Assembly: GCA_012455605.1 (NCBI GenBank)
Contig: GCA_012455605.1_3618.1
Source of the DNA: a phage
Length of the DNA: 64,000 nucleotides
Reading direction: 5' to 3' (one strand)
Shown: positions 16,333 to 55,745 of the stretch, in pieces
How the letters are laid out: each line of letters opens with the position of its first letter
How positions within the stretch are numbered: the first letter of the stretch is position 1
Notes under the pieces: model-generated
Seen by the model: only the letters and a program-made list of their open reading frames with translations
Database searches by the model: none
Told to the model about the DNA's origin: nothing
Position numbers and translations under genes: made by a program

Positions 16333-16360
16333 TCATAAAAGCCCTCCGAAGAGGGCTTTA
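16333..16360 (-). terminator. rho-independent terminator (minus strand)
   Basis: AAAGCCCTC-ttcg-GAGGGCTTT hairpin followed by T-run, after the 16371 stop. Confidence 0.55.
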
Positions 16361-16370
16361 GAATTAATGT

Positions 16371-17420
16371 TTAAGCTTCTTCGACAATTCCTGCACCCAG
16401 GATTTTTTCATTGAGCTCTTTTGCTGTTTTAATAATATTGTCCACCAGACGCTTGCGGGTCTTATCTTTAACCTGAACTTCTTCACCTCCGTTCAGGGTG
16501 GTTTTCAATTGGGACAAAATGTCCTGAAGCTCTACCACAGAGAACCGCTGCAGATCTTCCGAGGTAATCTCACCCAGTGCAATCTTAATGGTCTCACCGC
16601 TCTCCATCTGCAGATTCAGGAACACAGTGTGAACATCACCTTTCATACCATTTGCTTTTGCAGACTCAACAGCATGAACCAGCTCGTCCAGAGATGTGCA
16701 TTGGTGAATCTCTGGCAGGCCTGCTTCACCTAGCACGCCTTCTTCATCACTTTTTGCCAAAAGCTTTTTCGGTTTCTGTCCATTCTGAATGCGCTGAATG
16801 TTTTCATCGTCCAGAATAATAGCACCAGTTCGAGATGCCAGCTCTTCCCCATCTAACCACACTTCGCCGCCAGCTGTGATGGATGCGATCTCATCTTCTG
16901 TTAGCACTCCACCGTAGTATTTTTCGATCAGGCGTTCAAAACGTTTCTTCCAGTAGTTGACCTGGGTATTCATGTTCACACCGTTACCATAGGTGCCACC
17001 TTGATAGTAGTGGAACATAAATTCTGTGTCCGGAGCCACAGTTCGTTCTTTGCAACCCAGCCATAAGATTGTTCCTGCCGAGCAGCACATCCCTTCAGCG
17101 TGTACAACAACGCTTGCCTGAGACTCGCGGAATGCCTGCAAATACGCCATAGCGATGTGAACGCAACCACCAGGACTGTTAATAATCACCCGAATGCTTT
17201 CTTCCGGCTGAGCCATACGGATCGTCTGCAGACGAGACATATGATCTTGTAAGTCTTCCAAATCGTCGATATAAAGAACGTGGTCAACAACAGGTGTTGG
17301 GTAGCTGTATGTTTCCATAATACCACCCGGCATACCGAACATTTTATTACTCATAGGTTCGAAACCGTTCTGTTTTTCTTTCGTGCCGTGTACCATGGTG
17401 CTGCGATGTGTTAAATTCAT
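16371..17420 (-). CDS. ClpP-family serine peptidase with long C-terminal extension
   Basis: VIINSPGG, MCCSAG and FMFHY resemble the ClpP Ser/His motifs; about 150 aa charged C-terminal domain. Confidence 0.6.
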   Translation of the reverse strand: MNLTHRSTMVHGTKEKQNGFEPMSNKMFGMPGGIMETYSYPTPVVDHVLYIDDLEDLQDHMSRLQTIRMAQPEESIRVIINSPGGCVHIAMAYLQAFRESQASVVVHAEGMCCSAGTILWLGCKERTVAPDTEFMFHYYQGGTYGNGVNMNTQVNYWKKRFERLIEKYYGGVLTEDEIASITAGGEVWLDGEELASRTGAIILDDENIQRIQNGQKPKKLLAKSDEEGVLGEAGLPEIHQCTSLDELVHAVESAKANGMKGDVHTVFLNLQMESGETIKIALGEITSEDLQRFSVVELQDILSQLKTTLNGGEEVQVKDKTRKRLVDNIIKTAKELNEKILGAGIVEEA

Positions 17421-17480: not shown

Positions 17481-17792
17481 TTATTTAGCAATCACTATGG
17501 AATACTTACGATTGTCAGAAGCATCACAGCTCAGTGATTGCCAGTCTACCACATACCACGTATCATTGTCAACAATTACTTTATCGCCTGTTCTGTAGCA
17601 GGTGCTGCTTTCAATAATCCGAGACTCGATAAAGAATCTGTGTCGGCGCTCACGTAGCAACGCTAAGTTGATTATATTACCACCACTGTCCTTGATCCAT
17701 ACATTCTTGGATCCTTTATATGCCAGAATTGTCTCGCCGTTATAGACAAACAGGCAGTATATTTTATTCAGTTTCTCTTGTACTGTAGCCAT
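17481..17792 (-). CDS. hypothetical protein (103 aa)
   Basis: ORF with RBS ggagaaggagatagtATG and an upstream promoter. Confidence 0.45.
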   Translation of the reverse strand: MATVQEKLNKIYCLFVYNGETILAYKGSKNVWIKDSGGNIINLALLRERRHRFFIESRIIESSTCYRTGDKVIVDNDTWYVVDWQSLSCDASDNRKYSIVIAK

Positions 17793-17817: not shown

Positions 17818-17846
17818 ATAATATCTAAAGCTTACCTGTTTGTCAA
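17818..17846 (-). promoter_or_regulatory. sigma70-like promoter (minus strand, TTGACA-17-TATTAT)
   Basis: reverse complement of plus 17841-17846 is TTGACA and of 17818-17823 is TATTAT. Confidence 0.5.
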
Positions 17847-17890
17847 CAAATGTTTTAGATATCTAAGGGTGGAATAACCACCCTTCTGTG

Positions 17891-18679
17891 TTACTCGGAA
17901 ACAGGGGTCCAAATATGATTTGCACGATCCTCAATAAGATTGAGTGCAATCTGACGACCCAATCCGGAACGAACGACATCGTCTGGACTATCAAAGCTGA
18001 TCATTCCAACCTCAGGATCTGGATGACGAGTAAAGAAATCCGTCACCCATGCAAGTCCAGATTTACCAGGGATGTCACGTTGGCTATTATCGCCCATGAT
18101 TACAAGGGTGGCCTGATCAGAGATCCTTGTGATAATTGACAACATTTCTTCAGGGTTAGTTTGCTGTGCCTCGTCAATCAGGACAAAGCATCGCTCATCG
18201 AAACTACGACCACGAATGCTTTCAACCTCACAAATCTCGATACGGCTGTTCTGACCATCTCCCAGCATTGCGGCAAAAGCACCTTTGCCAACACGACGAC
18301 AAATAGTGTCCATCATGCTTCGAAGATAAGGCCACAGTTTCTGCATTGCATTACCGGGTTTAAATCCTGAAGTCTTTCCTGTCTGAACGTAAGGACGTGC
18401 AACAATGATCTTATCAATCTCGTTCTTACGCAGAAGATCACCTGCATATGCAGATGCCATGAATGTCTTACCGGATCCAAACACACCGTTTACAATAATA
18501 ATCTTACGTGACCCTAGATAATCAAGATACTTTTGCTGCTTCTTATTCATTGGTCGGAGAGCTGGAGCGGTGTGCTCTCGTTCGTCAGCAAATTTCTCAG
18601 CAGCCTTACGCAGGCGATCAGATTTGCGAGCCTCTCTAGCTTCATCACGCATGCGTTTTGTTTCTTTAGCTCGACCCAT
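17891..18679 (-). CDS. phoH: PhoH-like ATPase
   Basis: Walker A GVFGSGKTF, Walker B CFVLIDEAQ and overall PhoH layout. Confidence 0.8.
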   Translation of the reverse strand: MGRAKETKRMRDEAREARKSDRLRKAAEKFADEREHTAPALRPMNKKQQKYLDYLGSRKIIIVNGVFGSGKTFMASAYAGDLLRKNEIDKIIVARPYVQTGKTSGFKPGNAMQKLWPYLRSMMDTICRRVGKGAFAAMLGDGQNSRIEICEVESIRGRSFDERCFVLIDEAQQTNPEEMLSIITRISDQATLVIMGDNSQRDIPGKSGLAWVTDFFTRHPDPEVGMISFDSPDDVVRSGLGRQIALNLIEDRANHIWTPVSE

Positions 18680-45733: not shown

Positions 45734-45805
45734 GCCCTGTTAGCTTAGTGGATAAAGCAGCGGCCTTCTAAGCCGTTGACACTGGTTCGAGTCCAGTACG
45801 GGGTG
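45734..45805 (+). tRNA. tRNA-Arg (anticodon TCT)
   Basis: hand-folded cloverleaf: acceptor GCCCTGT/ACGGGGT, anticodon arm GCGGC-cttCTaa-GCCGT, T-arm ACTGG-ttcgagt-CCAGT, encoded CCA. Confidence 0.75.
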
Positions 45806-45812
45806 CCAAATT

Positions 45813-45896
45813 GGGGAGTTATCCCGTAGAGGTAGCGGTGTAGACTGTAAATCTATTGTCATTGCGACTCGGGTGGTTCGACTCCACCACTCCCCA
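45813..45896 (+). tRNA. tRNA-Tyr (anticodon GTA)
   Basis: acceptor GGGGAGT/ACTCCCC, anticodon arm with CTGTAAATCT as in E. coli tRNA-Tyr, long variable arm, encoded CCA. Confidence 0.7.
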
Positions 45897-46013
45897 CCAA
45901 ATTTATATTTTTAGATGCATAAATAATACAGATAATGGCATTGATATTTATCGTCGTTTATACTAGTCACTAACTGCTCGAAAATCAGTGTCATTATCAG
46001 TATAATTTATAAA

Positions 46014-46101
46014 GGAGGGTAGGGAGCAATGGTGCTCAAGCGGTCTTGAAAACCGTCCCGTTGAGGATGACTCGATGATGGTTCGATTCCATTACTCTCC
46101 G
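46014..46101 (+). tRNA. tRNA-Ser (anticodon TGA)
   Basis: acceptor GGAGGGT/ACTCTCC, anticodon arm GCGGT-cttgaaa-ACCGT, long variable arm, discriminator G, encoded CCA. Confidence 0.7.
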
Positions 46102-46202
46102 CCACATTGTTGACCTTGTAATTAAGCGAAAGCCGGAAGCAGAACCGGATTATCAAATGTTACAGTCGTCATCGCCGACTAGCAACATGGTCAACATACT
46201 GA

Positions 46203-46299
46203 GCTAGGTAAGCCCTTTGGCAAGGGCGAGGATTTTTAATCCTGAAAATAGACGAGGTAGTCGTTGAATACATAGGTGGTTCGATTCCATCACCTAGCA
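46203..46299 (+). tRNA. aberrant tRNA-like gene (Leu-type body, non-canonical anticodon loop; possible pseudo-tRNA)
   Basis: acceptor GCTAGGT/ACCTAGC, D-arm GCCC-tttggcaa-GGGC, T-arm GGTGG-ttcgatt-CCATC, discriminator A; anticodon region AGGAT-tttta-ATCCT has a 5-nt loop (or UUU in the alternative fold); over-long variable region; no encoded CCA. Confidence 0.4.
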
Positions 46300-46306
46300 C
46301 CTTTTT

Positions 46307-46379
46307 GCTGATGTAGCACAATCGGTAGTGCAATTGATTTGTAATCAATAGGTTGTAGGTTCAAGTCCTGCCATCAGCA
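46307..46379 (+). tRNA. tRNA-Thr (anticodon TGT)
   Basis: acceptor GCTGATG/CATCAGC, anticodon arm ATTGA-tttgtaa-TCAAT, encoded CCA. Confidence 0.75.
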
Positions 46380-46383
46380 CCAA

Positions 46384-46455
46384 GGCCCTGTAGCTGGAAG
46401 GTTCAAGCAAGCGACTCATAATCGCCAGACGGTGGTTCAATTCCACCCAGGGCCA
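46384..46455 (+). tRNA. tRNA-Met or Ile2 (anticodon CAT)
   Basis: acceptor GGCCCTG/CAGGGCC, anticodon loop ctCATaa, T-arm GGTGG-ttcaatt-CCACC, encoded CCA. Confidence 0.7.
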
Positions 46456-46469
46456 CCAAATAATAAATA

Positions 46470-46543
46470 CTCCGCGTAGCTCAGCTTGGTAGAGCGCCTG
46501 ATTTGGGATCAGGAGGTCGAGTGTTCGAATCACTCCGTGGAGA
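46470..46543 (+). tRNA. tRNA-Pro (anticodon TGG)
   Basis: acceptor CTCCGCG/CGTGGAG, anticodon arm CCTGA-tttggga-TCAGG, encoded CCA. Confidence 0.75.
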
Positions 46544-46592
46544 CCACTTTCAGTTATACTTTAAACATATACAAACAAAAGGAACCTTTAAA

Positions 46593-46967: not shown

Positions 46968-47366
46968 ATGATTTCAGGTTTAACATGGCTGAGTAGATAT
47001 AGAGGGATCATAAAATGTTTAGTTTTTGCAGCTGCTATAGGTACAGCTTATCTTGGGGCCGTGTATTGGTTTAACTCTAAGCTTAATGAAGCCTACCAAG
47101 AAGGTGTGTTAGCAACAGAGTTGAAGTGGGAACGGATCCTTGATCAGCAACAAAAGCAGGCCGACAAAGTTAAAATGGGCCACGCAGAGGAGGTTAAAAA
47201 CCTTGAAAAATCCCTTTCTGACCTACAGGATAAATTAAATATGGCTGAGAAGGCAGGTAAAGAAAAGCAGATTATTTACCTCCAATCCACTGAGGGTAAG
47301 AAGTCAACACTCCCTGATCAGCTTATAGATATTTATAATGAGAGTATCAATCAGGAGGGTCGATGA
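46968..47366 (+). CDS. i-spanin-like (Rz-type) membrane protein
   Basis: N-terminal TM anchor then charged coiled-coil periplasmic domain; stop overlaps the next start (ATGA). Confidence 0.5.
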   Translation: MISGLTWLSRYRGIIKCLVFAAAIGTAYLGAVYWFNSKLNEAYQEGVLATELKWERILDQQQKQADKVKMGHAEEVKNLEKSLSDLQDKLNMAEKAGKEKQIIYLQSTEGKKSTLPDQLIDIYNESINQEGR

Positions 47367-47650
47367 GAGTTGCTACACTGTTTATTGTGTGCTTGTTATT
47401 ATGTGGGTGTGCAACCAGTGTTGAGAAAGAATACAAGATTGACCCTCCAGATGTAGGAAGGTTGATTGTTAAACCCCCAGAAGGTGCCATGAAACCACCT
47501 GCTAAAGCTATGCCTTTGAAGAAAGGTGCGCCAGATGCAGTAAATTCTGGCATTATGAGGGATAATAATCTGTCTTGTAGCAATGATAGAGCTAAATTGA
47601 TCATTTTGCAAGACTATATTAGAACACTTTTTCCAAAGGAGAGAGGTTAA
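47363..47650 (+). CDS. o-spanin-like (Rz1-type) outer membrane lipoprotein
   Basis: signal peptide with LLLCGCA lipobox-like motif; Pro-rich mature part. Confidence 0.5.
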   Translation: MRVATLFIVCLLLCGCATSVEKEYKIDPPDVGRLIVKPPEGAMKPPAKAMPLKKGAPDAVNSGIMRDNNLSCSNDRAKLIILQDYIRTLFPKERG

Positions 47651-48075
47651 TGTCTAAGATTTACGGACCGTGTTCTGAAAAGCAGAAGATGATCCTCGAA
47701 AACGATGCAGATATTTTGGTAATCGGCGGTGCCGCAGGGTCTGGCAAGTCGTTCCTCTTGCAGTTGATGCCACTTAAAATTATTGATGACCCCCACAGCT
47801 CTGTGGTTATGTTCCGAAGAACAACCCCACAGTTGGAAGGTGAGGGTGGACTATGGCCTAAAGCAGTAGCTATTTATAGTGATCTGCCTGAAAACATTAA
47901 GCCAAAGTTCAGAGAGAAGGATCATAAGTTCATTTTTCCACGGTTTGATCCGAACACTGGCAAGTGGGATAGAAGCAAAAAGGGAGCTGTTGTAAAATAC
48001 TGCCACATGGAGTATGTACAAGATAAGCTTAACCATCAGGGGCTTGAGTACACCATGGTTTGCTTCGATGAGGGT
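47650..48075 (+). CDS. terL: terminase large subunit, exon 1 (ATPase N-terminus: Walker A to Walker B)
   Basis: Walker A GGAAGSGKS; ends with YTMVCFDEG (Walker B-like) just before the stop; downstream ORF supplies the rest of the protein. Confidence 0.7.
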
Positions 48076-48394
48076 TAATTTGTAGCTCTCGTAAAACCTC
48101 CCTAATTGCGGGGAAATCTTTATTATTGACACCACCAGCCTGTTATGGTAACATAATAGAGGCTTCGAAGAGAGATCGAAGGTATGGTAACAGTGTGTTA
48201 ATTTAGATAATCCGCAGCGAAGCATCCGAGAGGATGAACGTTCAACGACTAGTCGAAAGACGTAGAATCAAGCGATTCGAAACGGGAGGGTAAGCGGTTG
48301 TTGTCGCTTATAAGATATAGTCTGGTCTGCATGGAGACATGCAGCTGCCTGAAAATGGCGGGGCAAGACTAGCGACCTTGCCCGAACATGAACG
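48076..48394 (+). mobile_element. group I self-splicing intron (IA2-like, no ORF) in the terminase large subunit gene
   Basis: core elements present in canonical order: P AATTGCGGGGAAA (48104-48116), Q AATCCGCAGC (48209-48218), R GTTCAACGACTAGTCGAAAG (48240-48259), S AAGATATAGTC (48312-48322); P1 pairing of exon GAGGGU (48070-48075) with intron GCUCUC (48085-48090) including U-G at the splice site; 3-prime boundary inferred from frame (alternatives to about 48430). Confidence 0.8.
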
Positions 48395-49516
48395 ACACAA
48401 TTCGAATGGGAGCAGATAGACTATCTGATGTCTCGTCTGCGATCTCAGTCAAAGTATCCATCAAGAATGGTTATCAGCTGTAACCCCGATTCAGAACACA
48501 TGCTTGCCAAACTGGTTAGATGGTGGTTGGACGATGAAGGGTATCCAGATCCGGAGAAATGCGGTAAGAAAAGATATTTTATCCGACGCGACGGTGAATT
48601 TATCTGGGGAGACTCTAAAGAAGAGTTGATAGAGAAATACACCACGGTTAACGGACTGGGTGTGGAGATCAAGCCAAGACCGTTGTCATTCTCGTTTATA
48701 GGCGCAACAATATTCGATAATCCTGTCTGCTTAAGAGACAACCCAGAATACCTTGCTTTCCTTGAAGGTCTGCCGGAACTGGAAAAAGCTCAGCTTCTTC
48801 ATGGTAACTGGTTTGCAAAGCCTGAGGGTGCAAACTATTTTCAAAGATCTTTCCTTCGTGATGCCGATAGAGTACCCATTGGATCAGTATCTTGCAGGGC
48901 ATGGGATAAGGCAGGAACCGAGAGAACTTCCGGTAATAAATTTCCTGACTTTACCGCCAGTATTAAGGTAAGTAAAGATAGCGACGGCTTTTATTACCTG
49001 TCCGGTGATTATTGTCCTGAGAACGTGGATGACGGGAGGTATTCCACAGGTCTGGAAGGCAAGTTCTGTAAAAAGGCTGGTGAACGAGATGTGATCATCA
49101 GGAAACAGGCGCAGTTTGATGGTGATGATTGCATAATCGTATTCTCTGTGGACCCTGGTCAGGCAGGTAAGAGTGAGTTCTTAACCTCATCCAGATCCTT
49201 GCTCGCCGAAGGGTTCAGGGTTGAAGAAGACCCAATGCCTTCCAACAAATCTAAACTGACAAGGTTCTCACCTTTTGCCAATCTTGCACAACAAGGAATG
49301 GTGAGGATTGTAAAATCCAGTTTCCATCCTGATACTCTGGAAGCATTTCTGACTGAACTTGAAAAATTCAACGGAGAAAGATCAACATTTAACAGAAAAG
49401 ACGACTGGGCAGACTGTGTAGCTTCTGCGATTAATTTCCTGGAGAAAGAGGAGGTAGCACTTCCTTGTGTGATTCCATCAATCTCATCACCTTCTATGTT
49501 CAAGCGTTTTATCTAA
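48395..49516 (+). CDS. terL: terminase large subunit, exon 2 (coupling motif and nuclease domain)
   Basis: frame open from 48392; contains RMVISCNPD (like T4 gp17 IIITTTPNG); exon start inferred. Confidence 0.65.
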   Translation, partial: TQFEWEQIDYLMSRLRSQSKYPSRMVISCNPDSEHMLAKLVRWWLDDEGYPDPEKCGKKRYFIRRDGEFIWGDSKEELIEKYTTVNGLGVEIKPRPLSFSFIGATIFDNPVCLRDNPEYLAFLEGLPELEKAQLLHGNWFAKPEGANYFQRSFLRDADRVPIGSVSCRAWDKAGTERTSGNKFPDFTASIKVSKDSDGFYYLSGDYCPENVDDGRYSTGLEGKFCKKAGERDVIIRKQAQFDGDDCIIVFSVDPGQAGKSEFLTSSRSLLAEGFRVEEDPMPSNKSKLTRFSPFANLAQQGMVRIVKSSFHPDTLEAFLTELEKFNGERSTFNRKDDWADCVASAINFLEKEEVALPCVIPSISSPSMFKRFI

Positions 49517-49618: not shown

Positions 49619-51175
49619 GTGTCCAAAAAGAACCGCAGGAAACACAACGCCACAGCCAAAACTGTGAATAAATCTGGGAACGCAGGCGCACCAACTCATA
49701 ATGTTCGTATGAGTGAGATCGGTTCTGGCGCACTTTCCCAAATTATGGCAGAATCGCAATCTATGATGGTTGAGGAATTGCGTTGGCCTCAGCTGATTGC
49801 TACAGTGGAGACTATGAAATGTGATTCCACAGTTGCTACTGCCTTAGATACAAAATATGTTTTCATCACGAAAGCATTCAATGATTTTAAGATCCTTTAT
49901 AATGTTAAAAGTGAAGACTCTAAGAAAGCTGCAGAGCTTATAGAGTATTCTTTGCGTAATTTGGCAAACCAACAAACTCTTCGAGATATTGCAAGAAGCG
50001 CAGCTACCTTTAACGAGTATGGTTTTTCACTGTTTGAGAAAGTATACCGCAGAGAGAAAGAAGGTAAATATGCCGGGATGCTTCTTATTGATAAAATTGC
50101 ATTCCGACCTCAGGCCAGCCTGTCCAGATCAGAGCCGTTTGTTTTTGACAAGAATAGTAGAACACTGACAGGTATTTATCAGTCACCTAATGCATTTCTA
50201 AACACTCAGAATGCACGCTGGGCTGGACCTCTTGCTGCAATGCCTTCAAAAGGCTTTAATGAGCCTGAAATTTTCATCCCTGCTAAAAAGCTTATGCTCA
50301 TGACCCTGTCAGGAACAGAATCTAACCCTGCAGGTGTGTCGCCGATGATAGGTTGCTACAGATCTTTCCGTGAGAAAGTTCTGATTGAAAACCTTGAGGT
50401 TGTTGGCTGTTCCAAAGACCTTGGTGGTGTGCTTGAGCTGAAAATTCCTTCCAATATTTTGAACAAGGCCAGCATTGACCCGAATTCAATGGAAGGGAGA
50501 ATGGTTGCAGATCTTATGCTTGACGCAGCAAACGCCCATAGTGGTGAGCAAAGTTTCTTTATACTTCCGTCTGATAGAGATAAGTCTGGTAAAGAGCTTT
50601 ACTCCATGACCCTGAAGGGGGTTGACGGTATGGGTAAGCAGTATTCCACTAAAGATTTGATTGATGCCCGTAAGAAGGCGATTCTTGACCGTTTCGGTGC
50701 TGGATTTATTAACCTCGGTAACGATAACGTTGGATCCTTCTCTCTGTCTGAATCAAAACAGTCTATCCATGGTCATTTTGTTCAGCGTGATATAGATATT
50801 ATCACTGAAGCCTTCAATAAGGATCTTATTCCACAGCTTTTGGCATTGAATGGTATCATCCTTGAAGATGATGATATGCCTAAACTGAAACCTGGTCTGA
50901 TTGAAGAGGTGGACATGGAGAGCTTCTCCAAATTTGTCCAGAGGATCGGTGCTGTAGGTTACTTGCCAAAAACTCCTGCAGTAATTAATAAGATTCTTGA
51001 AGTAGGCGGGTTTGATGAAAGATTTGACGAGGACATGGACCAGGAAGAGCTGATGAAGCTCTTGGGCCAGGACATCAGTAGGGCTGGTGATGGAATGGCT
51101 GCAGGATCCACTGGTAACGGCACTTCTAAGATGTCATCAACCAGAGATAATTCCATATCCAACATGGAAAATTAA
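49619..51175 (+). CDS. portal protein (putative, GTG start)
   Basis: 518 aa ORF immediately downstream of terminase; size and position typical for portal. Confidence 0.5.
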   Translation: MSKKNRRKHNATAKTVNKSGNAGAPTHNVRMSEIGSGALSQIMAESQSMMVEELRWPQLIATVETMKCDSTVATALDTKYVFITKAFNDFKILYNVKSEDSKKAAELIEYSLRNLANQQTLRDIARSAATFNEYGFSLFEKVYRREKEGKYAGMLLIDKIAFRPQASLSRSEPFVFDKNSRTLTGIYQSPNAFLNTQNARWAGPLAAMPSKGFNEPEIFIPAKKLMLMTLSGTESNPAGVSPMIGCYRSFREKVLIENLEVVGCSKDLGGVLELKIPSNILNKASIDPNSMEGRMVADLMLDAANAHSGEQSFFILPSDRDKSGKELYSMTLKGVDGMGKQYSTKDLIDARKKAILDRFGAGFINLGNDNVGSFSLSESKQSIHGHFVQRDIDIITEAFNKDLIPQLLALNGIILEDDDMPKLKPGLIEEVDMESFSKFVQRIGAVGYLPKTPAVINKILEVGGFDERFDEDMDQEELMKLLGQDISRAGDGMAAGSTGNGTSKMSSTRDNSISNMEN

Positions 51176-51243
51176 AAAATTATCAACACAGGGGGTTGCA
51201 AAACCTCCTTTGGCGTGATAAAATAATCCACATGGGGAATAAG

Positions 51244-51663
51244 ATGCCACAGGAAGAAATGATTTCCTACGAAATCATCTACGAGCCTGACACTAAAGAT
51301 GCTCACGGTGAGTGGATGAGTAAAGACACCATCAAAAAGGCTAAAGATAACTGGGACGCAGCATACGCCGCAGGCCTAGTTTCTGAAAACCTTTTTCACT
51401 TGACCTCTACAGATGCTTTCACTATTGAAAAGACGTGGATTCAAGAAGAGTTTGATGTTGTAGTAATTGGCACTGAGCAGGTCATCAAGGCTGGCTCTTG
51501 GGTTGCTAAAGTTAAATACAATAATCCTGAACTATGGGAAGCTAAGAAGGCTGGCATTGTTGGTGGCCTAAGCATTCAGGCAACAGGTAATGTTGATGAA
51601 GAAACTGGTGAAATTACCAACGTAAACTTCGGGATCAGTGTTGTAGAAGAGGGCAATGAATAA
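51244..51663 (+). CDS. hypothetical head morphogenesis protein
   Basis: ORF between portal and scaffold; start at ATG with RBS gggga. Confidence 0.35.
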   Translation: MPQEEMISYEIIYEPDTKDAHGEWMSKDTIKKAKDNWDAAYAAGLVSENLFHLTSTDAFTIEKTWIQEEFDVVVIGTEQVIKAGSWVAKVKYNNPELWEAKKAGIVGGLSIQATGNVDEETGEITNVNFGISVVEEGNE

Positions 51664-52640
51664 TGTCTGAAAAAACGATTACTATTAAAGAGAAGGGGAT
51701 TGCCCTGTGCCATAAGGCGCAAGGCTATAGCGCTAACAACAGACCTGTATCTCTTTTGATGAAGAGTGATCTTAAGCCTGAGCAGTTAACAGACGACATT
51801 GTTAAGGCACTTCGCCAAGTTACTGTGGAGCTTAGTTTTGAAGAATACCTGCGTCGTTTCTTCGATATGTGGTATGATGATGCTAAAGCACTTGCACACA
51901 TGCTTGGTTTTGAGATTGAAGAGGAGGCTTGGGCTAAAGAGCATCCTGATTGGGAATGGGCGCAAGCTGACGCAGAGTCTTGTATTGCATGGCTGGAAGA
52001 GCGTTGTGATAACGTGACCATTCATAAAGCTGCAAAAGAAGGCAAGCAGCTTAGTGTGGTAGATCAGTACAGTCTGTTAAAAACACAACAGATTTTTGAA
52101 CAAGTAACCGCTGATCTCTTCGATAAAGAAGGGAACCTGATCAAGGCGGTACAGGAACCTGCTGAGGTGGATAAAACTACCGAGGTGGATGATGTTGCAA
52201 AATCCGCAAATACCGAGGAGAATCCGGTGGACGTAACCAAAACTAAAGAGTATCTGGATCTGCTGAAGCAAGTAGAAGAGCTGAAAGCAACCCAGAGTAA
52301 AGCTGAAGAAATCATCAAGGCCCAGGTTGAAGTTGAAAAAGCTAAAATGCTGACTAAGGCTCAAGCTTTAAGCTTTGTTGGTGAAGAAGATCATGCAACC
52401 CTGGTTGACTTCATGCTGGAAAAAGCTAACGAACCTATCGTAGCTATGCTGGAGAAAGCTCAAGCAAAAATTGAAGAGCTGGAAGCAGAGGTGCATAAAA
52501 CCAAAGAAGAGTTTGCCACCACTGAACATGGTAATGATGGCGAACCTGTTGTGGATGATATTGCAAAATCCGCAGAAGAAATTCTTGCTGAAAACGTTGC
52601 AAAAGCACTTGCTCGTGCACGTGCAGAATCTAACAAATAA
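51663..52640 (+). CDS. scaffolding protein (putative)
   Basis: 325 aa, acidic, coiled-coil-like (KEYLDLLKQVEELKATQSKAEEIIKAQVEVEKAK); position before capsid gene. Confidence 0.45.
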   Translation: MSEKTITIKEKGIALCHKAQGYSANNRPVSLLMKSDLKPEQLTDDIVKALRQVTVELSFEEYLRRFFDMWYDDAKALAHMLGFEIEEEAWAKEHPDWEWAQADAESCIAWLEERCDNVTIHKAAKEGKQLSVVDQYSLLKTQQIFEQVTADLFDKEGNLIKAVQEPAEVDKTTEVDDVAKSANTEENPVDVTKTKEYLDLLKQVEELKATQSKAEEIIKAQVEVEKAKMLTKAQALSFVGEEDHATLVDFMLEKANEPIVAMLEKAQAKIEELEAEVHKTKEEFATTEHGNDGEPVVDDIAKSAEEILAENVAKALARARAESNK

Positions 52641-52660: not shown

Positions 52661-53050
52661 ATGATTACCGCTCAATATTCTGATATCGTGCTCGGCAAAG
52701 TTGATTCTAGCGATGCTGGCTACAATTTTAAAGAGATGGAAATTACACTGACAGAGCACCATCATGCTGGCACGGTTGTGACCAAAGATGGTAGCATTGC
52801 CAATCAGGACGGTTCAGACGCCTATGGCGTTCTGGTGGATCGTGCTTTAATTCCGGACGCTGCTGGTAAAGTACATATCGCTGAACCTCTTGGCACAAAG
52901 AAATATAAACTGGTTGTTGCTGTGCGTGGTGTTACTTTTGCCAAGGATAAATTGCTGGCAACTGGTGGTGCTAAAGCAGAACAGGCTGTGTTAGACAAGC
53001 TTGAGGCTCTGGGTAACAAGGTTCAGGTCCAGACTCTTGGTGAAGAGTAA
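52661..53050 (+). CDS. hypothetical head protein (129 aa)
   Basis: ORF with RBS; strong codon bias like neighbours. Confidence 0.4.
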   Translation: MITAQYSDIVLGKVDSSDAGYNFKEMEITLTEHHHAGTVVTKDGSIANQDGSDAYGVLVDRALIPDAAGKVHIAEPLGTKKYKLVVAVRGVTFAKDKLLATGGAKAEQAVLDKLEALGNKVQVQTLGEE

Positions 53051-53098: not shown

Positions 53099-54106
53099 AT
53101 GATTACTCGTAAAGATGAATTTGGCATTGTTGATTTAGGTGCTACTCTGGACCTTGTTCCGCGTCAATTCCGCCTGATTACTGGTATGGATCTGTTCGAA
53201 ACCCGTCTCGGCACCTCAACAATTGCTCAGATTGAGCGTGTTGATGAAGTTGTAACCGACATTCCGGCACGCCGTCGTGGTGGTGAGCGTAACTACGTTG
53301 GTAGTGAACGTGCTCAGGTTAAAAACCTGAACATCCCGTTCTTCCCTCTGGACAAAGGCATCACCGCAGCAGATGTTCAGAACTTCCGTCGTTACTTCAC
53401 CCCTGATGCTCCGAAAACTGTTCAGGATGTAGTAACCCGCGTTGTTCGCCGTATCCGTGTTTCTCATGAAGCACTGCGTGAGAAAGCGCTGTTCCAGGCT
53501 ATTCTTGGTAAATCCTATGCACCTGGCGACACAACCTGTCAGTATGACTACTACACTCTGTGGGGTGTGTCTCAGAAATCTGTTGAGATCGATCCTGCAA
53601 AAGCAGATCAGGACCCGATGGAAGTTCTGGAAGACGCTCGTCTGCATATCGCCCTGCAAGCTGGTGACAACGCTGCTGGCTACCGTATCGTGGCTCTGTG
53701 CTCTCCTGAGTTCTTCAGTGCAATCACTCACCACCCGCTGGTAGAACTGGCATACACCTATTACGGCTCTGCTCAGGAACCTCTGCGTCGTCGTCTGGGT
53801 GCTGGCGGTCAGGACAGCGTTTATCGTGTGTTCGAACATAAAGGTATCACCTTTATCGAAGATATCTCTGGCAATATTCCTAAGAAAGAAGCTCGCATTC
53901 TGCCGATGGGTATTGATCAGATGTTCCAGCTGCACTTTGCTCCGGCAGATGATGTTAACGAAGCAAATACCCCAGCACAGGAACTGTATATGTGGTATAA
54001 ACACTCTGCATACCTGCGTGAAGAGAAGATTGAATCTGAAACTTCTATGCTGGCAGTTAACACCCGCCCAGAGCTGGTTGTTAAAGCAACTCTGAAAGGT
54101 GACTAA
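53099..54106 (+). CDS. major capsid protein (putative)
   Basis: 335 aa ORF after scaffold with marked high-expression codon usage (cgt, ctg, ggt) and a strong terminator downstream. Confidence 0.5.
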   Translation: MITRKDEFGIVDLGATLDLVPRQFRLITGMDLFETRLGTSTIAQIERVDEVVTDIPARRRGGERNYVGSERAQVKNLNIPFFPLDKGITAADVQNFRRYFTPDAPKTVQDVVTRVVRRIRVSHEALREKALFQAILGKSYAPGDTTCQYDYYTLWGVSQKSVEIDPAKADQDPMEVLEDARLHIALQAGDNAAGYRIVALCSPEFFSAITHHPLVELAYTYYGSAQEPLRRRLGAGGQDSVYRVFEHKGITFIEDISGNIPKKEARILPMGIDQMFQLHFAPADDVNEANTPAQELYMWYKHSAYLREEKIESETSMLAVNTRPELVVKATLKGD

Positions 54107-55692: not shown

Positions 55693-55745
55693 AAATTGTT
55701 GCTTTTGATGTATCTTTGTGGTAAAATACATTAGTGAGGGATATA

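Follow-up and report, generated by a model that had tools for sequence, protein, structure and literature searches.

The 64,000-nt stretch of phage DNA analyzed here (contig GCA_012455605.1_3618.1 of NCBI GenBank assembly GCA_012455605.1; hereafter the window) carries on its minus strand, at 16371..17420, an open reading frame (ORF) of 349 aa plus stop that encodes a ClpP-like peptidase orthologous to gp122 of phage rV5. The source phage is a Vequintavirus, an rV5/FV3-like myophage of Escherichia coli, and the 3.2-kb stretch around the gene is 95-97% identical to more than 100 Vequintavirus genomes. The sequence AAGGA is located 8 nt 5' of the first ATG. A first-pass annotation, made from the DNA letters and their translations, had placed at this locus a ClpP-like peptidase with a long charged C-terminal extension, encoded far from the head genes, and had proposed that it might be either a displaced prohead protease-scaffold fusion or an effector of host proteostasis. 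The ORF is exact and its S14-type profile match lies above the Pfam threshold. We consider it probable, though well short of certain, that the protein is a non-structural, phage-specific serine peptidase of the ClpP fold, probably independent of an unfoldase, and that it is not a head maturation protease.

The gene itself is already known: its annotation dates back to the rV5 genome paper, and a PHROG family is devoted to it. The rV5 ortholog is listed as a 349-aa, 38.5-kDa "ClpP (ATP-dependent) protease subunit" (Table S3, Kropinski et al. 2013, PMC3606486), the label "ClpP ATP-dependent protease subunit" is attached to the gene in more than 100 genome records, and the long form of the gene is found in 188 phage records at E<=1e-40. 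The protein matches the PHROGs family phrog_5410, "ATP-dependent protease," at E=6.6e-155, with residues 24-345 aligned to profile positions 4-322 of 323, and on this profile alignment it is a full-length member of that family. Orthologs within Vequintavirus are 96-99% identical, 349 aa long, and have the same neighbors (PhoH, a small ORF, and a methyltransferase). Between our protein and rV5 gp122 or the other orthologs of the Vequintavirinae (e.g., PVP-SE1 gp151 and the 4MG protein) we see no substantive difference, and their naming rests on BLAST and Pfam similarity. Literature searches on rV5 and ClpP, phage-encoded ClpP, ClpP-like prohead proteases, and ICP1 and ClpP returned no functional characterization of the family, and PADLOC returned no defense or anti-defense match for the protease or for the adjacent 103-aa ORF.

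Similarity of the product to ClpP is far beyond chance. Residues 59-168 match the Pfam family CLP_protease (PF00574) at E=4e-13, with 50.1 bits against a cutoff of 20.2. The ClpP-fold protease core occupies residues 44-200 (16821..17291, minus strand) and is modeled by AlphaFold2 at a predicted local distance difference test (pLDDT) value of about 90; in Foldseek comparisons it matches solved ClpP structures at E of about 1e-10, with target template modeling (TM) scores of 0.65-0.7 and an identity of about 17-24%. The handle helix of ClpP is present at residues 150-169 of the AlphaFold2 monomer model. Ahead of the core, the N-terminal residues 1-43 (17292..17420, minus strand) are predicted to be disordered (pLDDT about 30). 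Residues 1-22 are specific to Vequintavirus, and F28 and G29 are conserved in the family alignment, which comprises 20 members from phages whose genomes all measure about 130-150 kb. With cellular ClpP (E. coli, PDB 1TYF; MEROPS S14) the phage protein has in common the fold, the positions of the catalytic Ser and His, the GG motif, and the handle helix, but it is longer by the 43-aa region at the N terminus and by a 149-aa extension at the C terminus.

The catalytic pair expected of such an enzyme is present. Ser114 (17079-17081, minus strand), in the motif GxxCSAG, aligns to ClpP Ser97, and His137 (17010-17012, minus strand), in the motif MFHxYQGG, aligns to ClpP His122; both are invariant in 20 of 20 family members, and the GG motif of the oxyanion region is also strictly invariant. 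The third position of the triad is different. Where ClpP has Asp171, the phage protein has Glu186 (16863-16865, minus strand), and across the family the position is Glu in five members, including this one, and Gln in the other 15, so the canonical Ser-His-Asp triad is not found. The sequence of E. coli ClpP used in these comparisons was verified against PDB 1TYF, and its alignment to the family was made on the protease cores only.

The site at which an unfoldase would dock on ClpP is also altered. In E. coli ClpP the pocket that receives acyldepsipeptides (ADEP) and the IGF loop is formed by V44, L48, F49, E51, A52, and F82 of one protomer and by R22, L23, V28, F30, Y60, Y62, I90, M92, L114, and L189 of the next (bioRxiv 10.1101/2023.03.01.530711). 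In the phage family Y60 is replaced by an invariant R77, F82 by an invariant E99, I90 by an invariant H107, and M92 by an invariant E109; L114 is replaced by A or S and L23 by P or H, while L48, F49, and A52 fall in a five-residue deletion that removes part of helix B. F112, absent from the list above but also counted as a pocket residue, is replaced by an invariant T127. The only pocket positions that stay hydrophobic are V28, F30 (Y in the family), Y62 (I or V), and L189. Six pocket positions are thus polar, charged, or small, five of them invariantly so, and the hydrophobic pocket into which the IGF/LGF loops of ClpX, ClpA, or ClpC dock is not found in this protein. To judge from the alignment, the canonical ClpX/ClpA docking site is not conserved in the family, and because neither the docking pocket nor the triad Asp is conserved, the label "ATP-dependent" is unsupported, doubtful, and probably misleading.

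Profile scores point in the same direction. All ClpP and ClpP-like models of NCBIfam match the ORF, every one of them below its own cutoff, and the equivalog cutoffs of canonical ClpP are far from reached (33.4 bits against 308.6 for TIGR00493 and 38.1 against 249 for PRK00277). By sequence, therefore, the protein departs from canonical ClpP in three defining respects: its triad Asp position, its docking pocket, and its scores against the equivalog models. Among the named relatives of the core, only the phage "ATP-dependent protease" PHROGs outscore the ClpP-related head maturation proteases (NF045542, phrog_1684, and phrog_94). The match to the head maturation model NF045542 has E=3e-17 and 62.9 bits, below the cutoff of 120; NF045540 matches the core at E=7e-15 and 54.8 bits, and phrog_1684 matches at E=2e-23, its alignment extending to residue 258.

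The C-terminal extension that the first-pass annotation described as long and charged is indeed both, with 149 aa (residues 201-349) and about 30% charged residues compared with 21% in the core. Its supposed helical, scaffold-like character did not survive closer inspection: it consists of a short helix, a disordered linker, and a compact alpha/beta domain. Residues 201-243 (16692..16820, minus strand) form a conserved segment followed by the variable, disordered linker. The segment LLDxxNIxRxQxGxxP, at 203-217, includes a short helix (205-212) and the near-invariant alignment columns L203, D204, N207, I208, R210, Q212, G214, and P217; the linker, 222-238, varies in length and is disordered (pLDDT <50) in the AlphaFold2 model built on the family alignment. 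The family-specific domain that follows, residues 244-349 (16374..16691, minus strand), is modeled by AlphaFold2 as a helix, a beta-hairpin, and three helices. Its folded part, about 244-342, has pLDDT values of 80-94, with the beta-hairpin at 267-281 and helices at 295-309 and 322-342, and a separate AlphaFold2 model of residues 240-349 yields the same domain. The extension is not a coiled coil in these models. F293, E297, and R322 are invariant across genera despite a domain identity of 16-28% between genera.

The C-terminal domain appears to be confined to this family. A Pfam search found nothing near threshold, merely faint matches of HeH/SAP type, and no scaffold family matched. A HMMER profile search of 1.84 billion representative proteins found the domain solely in this family and its fragments; three very long proteins gave weak matches in several stretches (E of about 3e-4), which we take as compositional. 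The sole Foldseek match among viral models was a 303-aa protein that is, by its length, probably a sister-genus ortholog. A standalone or differently fused copy of the domain was also considered and rejected, the exhaustive profile search having returned this family alone. No in-frame internal start with a Shine-Dalgarno sequence precedes the domain, so a nested scaffold gene in the manner of lambda C/Nu3 is not indicated. A pair of helices in the domain could conceivably bind capsid. In a ClpP-like ring the C-terminal domains would be expected to project from the apical face, because the extension begins after L203, which aligns to the pocket residue L189.

The position of the gene agrees with its designation as far from the head genes: it lies 32 kb from the portal gene, in the opposite transcription arm, and thus outside the head module, where a ClpP-type head maturation protease would be expected. 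The head module occupies 49.6-54.1 kb of the plus-strand arm in a canonical layout, with tail genes beyond it, and GC skew changes sign near 42 kb of the window. On the plus strand, the portal gene (49619-51175) is followed directly by a 155-aa prohead protease of the Peptidase_S78_2/XkdF family (51196-51663), then by a 325-aa ORF of phrog_2970 (51663-52640) annotated as "head scaffold protein" in BASEL phages, a decoration protein (52661-53050), and the major capsid protein (53099-54106). The ORF at 51196-51663 scores 65.4 bits against a Pfam gathering cutoff of 24 (PF14550, E=6e-18) and occupies the expected slot after the portal, and its homologs are named "prohead protease" in the curated BASEL phages and "capsid protease" in ICP1. 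The first-pass annotation had seen no obvious protease in the head module. That premise was wrong, and the reading of the ClpP-like protein as a displaced prohead protease-scaffold fusion is consequently not supported as its present-day function.

Virion proteomes connect the S78_2 protease with the head. Mass spectrometry of CB7 virions detected the S78_2 homolog CB7_5 (PMC7344957), and that of W70 virions detected W70_136 (PMC11370258), which belongs to phrog_1530, the PHROG that also includes 51196-51663. The ClpP-like rV5 gp122 is missing from the 19 proteins of the rV5 virion mass-spectrometry data, in which there is neither a locus 122 nor an entry of 38541 Da. The CB7 and W70 proteomes were also considered as evidence that the ClpP-like protein is absent from virions, a use that was dropped for want of a confirmed ortholog in W70; at E<=1e-40 the long-form gene turned up in none of the Pectobacterium records. 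The CB7 and W70 data serve here solely to show that the S78_2 protease is head associated.

Several observations on the head module and the genes next to it stand apart from the question of the ClpP-like protein. The family phrog_1530 is labeled "DNA methyltransferase," as in several RefSeq records, whereas Pfam, BASEL, ICP1, and the W70 paper all indicate a capsid protease; the methyltransferase label looks like a propagated misannotation. With 913 spectra, the 325-aa phrog_2970 protein is plentiful in mature W70 virions, and it was detected in CB7 as well; instead of a transient scaffold, it may be a capsid component that is retained. Upstream of the portal, the ORF for the C-terminal part of the large terminase subunit (TerL; 48428-49516, plus strand) aligns to no more of the terminase profile phrog_979 than positions 285-621, and the terminase gene appears to be split between this ORF and upstream ORFs at 46968-48078; the rV5 paper contains a section on introns in the terminase gene. 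At 45734-46546 on the plus strand ARAGORN calls a cluster of seven tRNAs, six of them for Arg, Tyr, Ser, Thr, Met, and Pro; the seventh, with no assigned amino acid, is 99 nt long (46203-46301) and has the four-base anticodon "atcc." Six tRNAs were reported for rV5.

The ClpP-like gene itself lies in the leftward arm among genes for class I and class III ribonucleotide reductases, glutaredoxin, thymidylate synthase, PhoH, DNA methyltransferases, exonucleases, and ligase; its neighborhood is devoid of AAA+ unfoldase genes. Upstream of it on the minus strand are the 103-aa ORF (17481..17792), which matches phrog_5456 at E=7e-39, has no match in Pfam, and is its partner in a predicted transcription unit, and a PhoH-like P-loop ATPase (17891..18679; Pfam PhoH, E=4e-47). 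Between these two, a sigma70-type promoter-like site, TTGACA-17 nt-TATTAT (17818..17846, minus strand), has 11 of 12 consensus matches and is identical to the predicted rV5 promoter P121 (PMC3606486, Table S4). Promoter-like sites in the region are no more numerous than expected from shuffled sequence, and the site at 17818..17846 is a consensus match only. An intrinsic terminator hairpin, GCCCTC-TTCG-GAGGGC (GCCCTCTTCGGAGGGC) followed by TTTTAT, lies at 16335..16356 on the minus strand, 15 nt past the stop codon of the ClpP-like gene; it was found by direct reading of the sequence, a simple scanner not having listed it, and is identical to rV5 t122, with a deltaG of -14.9 kcal/mol. Because the promoter-like site lies 5' and the terminator 3', the ClpP-like gene apparently comes second in a self-contained bicistronic unit, and rV5 has the same promoter and terminator sequences. 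A further hairpin, GGGTGG-TTATTC-CCACCC, without a clear T-run, lies at 17864-17885 on the minus strand between the PhoH stop codon and the TTGACA and could act as a weak terminator or mark a processing site. Just two exact copies of the rV5 late motif TGGTAAAATA are present in the window, at 55719 and 59240, both in the structural arm. This context suggests that the bicistron is expressed early or in the middle of infection; our literature search found no transcriptomes for Vequintavirinae.

Comparison with more distant phages shows what has been kept. In other genera both the core and the C-terminal domain are shared, with an overall identity of 40-48% and a C-terminal domain identity of 16-28%; the protease cores are about 55-60% identical across genera. 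The order PhoH, one to three small ORFs, then the ClpP-like gene recurs in Vequintavirus, in the Seunavirus EC152, and in the Vibrio phages PWH3a-P1 and ICP1, and in EC152, PWH3a-P1, and ICP1 it stands at a distance from the head genes, surrounded by genes of nucleotide metabolism or ligase genes. In EC152 an ORF of phrog_5456 again lies between PhoH and the protease. In ICP1 the arrangement spans gp208 (PhoH) to gp211 (ClpP-like, 326 aa), and in ICP1 and PWH3a-P1 the ClpP-like gene lies downstream of PhoH and between the genes for ribonucleotide reductase and DNA ligase, but the ORFs between PhoH and the protease are unrelated to the 103-aa ORF. The cores of ICP1 gp211 and of the 321-aa PWH3a-P1 protein are 29-36% identical to that of our protein and have the same CCSA serine motif, and both proteins also have C-terminal extensions of about 150 aa. 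Homology between those extensions and ours was considered and rejected, none being detectable (hhalign probability 0.4%). ICP1 has a separate capsid protease of S78_2 type, about 40% identical to 51196-51663 and about 43 kb from gp211. The pairing of a dedicated head protease with a ClpP-like gene encoded elsewhere is therefore old and conserved, which makes a head-protease role for the ClpP-like gene hard to reconcile. In the Pakpunavirus PaoP5 a 182-aa ClpP-like gene is found without a PhoH neighbor. The linkage of the ClpP-like gene to PhoH could have a functional basis or could have been inherited with a shared genome backbone. As a side observation, GenBank records MG065652-MG065689, named "Campylobacter phage" (C11, C15, A12a, A13b, and others), are 95-99% identical to rV5-like phages in both regions tested, which suggests that the host was mislabeled or that the records are contaminated.

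Two known architectures invite comparison. The lambda gpC/Nu3 fusion joins a protease core to a scaffold part, and its general layout, a protease core with a C-terminal non-protease part, is shared by the ClpP-like protein. In lambda gpC/Nu3 and in HK97 gp4 the C-terminal parts dock the protease inside the procapsid. The phage protein is separated from the ClpP-type head maturation proteases by the position of its gene and by its profile score. The other comparison is with ClpP1 of Mycobacterium smegmatis, whose C-terminal extension covers the hydrophobic pocket and keeps an unfoldase from docking (PMC6889138), a precedent for an extension placed at the apical face. There the extension is short and the pocket beneath it is hydrophobic, whereas in the phage protein the pocket is remodeled and the extension carries a folded domain. 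The two extensions are not homologous, and the likeness is one of structural analogy alone.

A role in the head, the main idea of the first-pass annotation, could still be sought, with the ClpP-like protein acting as a second or auxiliary head maturation protease, encoded away from the head module, whose helix-rich C-terminal domain is capsid-targeting or scaffold-like and docks inside the procapsid. The closeness of the core to the ClpP-type head maturation models (NF045542, NF045540, and phrog_1684) fits this proposal, as does the resemblance of a core, linker, and helical C-terminal domain to protease-scaffold fusions, and absence from the mature virion is compatible with a prohead role. 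We nevertheless regard it as unlikely. The S78_2 protease and the annotated scaffold ORF already fill the slots between the portal and the major capsid protein, and it is the S78_2 family that has been detected in virions of related phages, while rV5 gp122 is not in the rV5 virion data. The NF045542 score is below the cutoff, there is no nested scaffold start, and the C-terminal domain is neither a coiled coil nor a match to a scaffold family. No exact late-promoter motif is present at the gene, and in every lineage examined, including ICP1 with its own capsid protease, the gene lies among nucleotide-metabolism genes in the opposite arm. Somewhat less probable still is the role that the common label implies, that of a ClpP subunit working with host ClpX or ClpA, alone or mixed with host ClpP, and boosting or redirecting ATP-dependent proteolysis during infection. 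It draws on the Pfam CLP_protease match above threshold, the overall fold including the handle helix, the intact Ser and His, and the label itself in its more than 100 genome records. It has to contend with six pocket positions that are polar, charged, or small and a partly deleted helix B, with a triad Asp that is not conserved (five Glu, 15 Gln), with scores far under the NCBIfam ClpP cutoffs and an identity of only about 17-24% to solved ClpPs, and with a C-terminal extension that would emerge at the docking face.

Equally doubtful to us is that the protease forms a module with the PhoH-like ATPase, and perhaps with the 103-aa protein, in which PhoH would provide nucleotide-dependent handling of substrates or a link to nucleic acid. 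The recurrence of the arrangement in Vequintavirus, Seunavirus, PWH3a-P1, and ICP1, though the proteases are just 29-36% identical, speaks for such a module, and so does the weak HeH-like motif in the C-terminal domain. HeH-type motifs are often associated with nucleic-acid-binding proteins. These phages nevertheless share a wider backbone (NrdAB, ligase, and the S78_2 protease), so the synteny may simply be inherited; a promoter-like site and a hairpin separate PhoH from the bicistron in the window, the intervening ORFs are not conserved between lineages, the Pakpunavirus gene has no PhoH neighbor, and PhoH is not a known unfoldase. The least probable of the alternatives, and in our view a very remote one, is a catalytically weak or inactive ClpP-like binder, for example a decoy or inhibitor of a host protease or defense sensor. 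Replacement of the triad Asp is in its favor, and the conserved polar residues at the former pocket suggest a new binding surface. Against it, Ser114, His137, and the GG motif are strictly invariant across genera despite cores that have diverged to about 55-60% identity, which argues for retained catalysis.

The reading we favor, a non-structural and unfoldase-independent peptidase, would work as follows. Catalysis would be carried out by Ser114 and His137, with Glu or Gln as the third residue. The protein would assemble into ClpP-like rings, an expectation drawn from retention of the handle helix, and would act without a host AAA+ unfoldase. Seven C-terminal domains per ring would be placed on the apical face, where an unfoldase normally docks, and could serve to gate the pore or to choose substrates or partners. 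The protein would be produced from its own transcription unit in the arm devoted to replication and nucleotide metabolism, and would act on host or phage proteins in the cytoplasm, either ahead of replication or in parallel with it. Of these elements, it is the oligomeric state, the independence from an unfoldase, the timing, and the role of the C-terminal domain that we infer. The host-proteostasis effector that the first-pass annotation had offered as its other option is compatible with the predicted early or middle neighborhood, the promoter-like site and terminator belonging to the gene's own unit, and the intact Ser-His pair.

Several points weigh against this reading. The core scores higher against phage ClpP-type head maturation models than against cellular ClpP (62.9 bits for NF045542, 33.4 for TIGR00493), and for that reason it may be descended from a head maturation protease of ClpP type. 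Loss of the pocket cannot separate a cytoplasmic from a capsid role, because ClpP-type head proteases also do not use ClpX. The absence of gp122 from the rV5 virion is weak evidence, since those data are shallow, with 19 proteins, and prohead proteases often leave the mature head. A version of the late motif with one mismatch, TGGTAATATA, lies at 17673-17682 inside the 103-aa ORF, 250 nt upstream of the ClpP-like ORF, and sigma70-like promoters are also predicted before some late genes of rV5. The apical placement of the C-terminal domain is deduced from an alignment rather than from a multimer model, and a search of the literature found no expression, activity, oligomer, or substrate data for members of the family.

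A broader form of the favored reading can be put forward, tentatively and as a rather unlikely possibility: phrog_5410 and its ICP1-type cousins would be a distinct class of unfoldase-independent chambered peptidases, in which lineage-specific apical C-terminal domains select host or phage targets such as defense or stress proteins, perhaps together with PhoH. Phage proteases can be sensed by the host. A CD-NTase (cGAS/DncV-like nucleotidyltransferase) of the cyclic oligonucleotide-based antiphage signaling system (CBASS) that is activated by phage-protease cleavage of a loop also restricts Bas48-59, and the specificity differs from that of T4 gp21 (PMC12991175). In the two CBASS protease papers the trigger in Vequintavirinae, whether the S78_2 head protease or the ClpP-like protein, is not reported.

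For the family as a whole, the name "ATP-dependent Clp protease subunit," now widespread in annotation, is probably a misnomer, and its C-terminal domain is known from this family alone. A second, non-head ClpP-like protease encoded beside PhoH is found again even in the distant phage ICP1, itself an intensively studied model. If the broader proposal were true, the phrog_5410/ICP1-type class would constitute a self-contained phage effector of proteostasis or counter-defense, extending from the rV5-like coliphages to ICP1.

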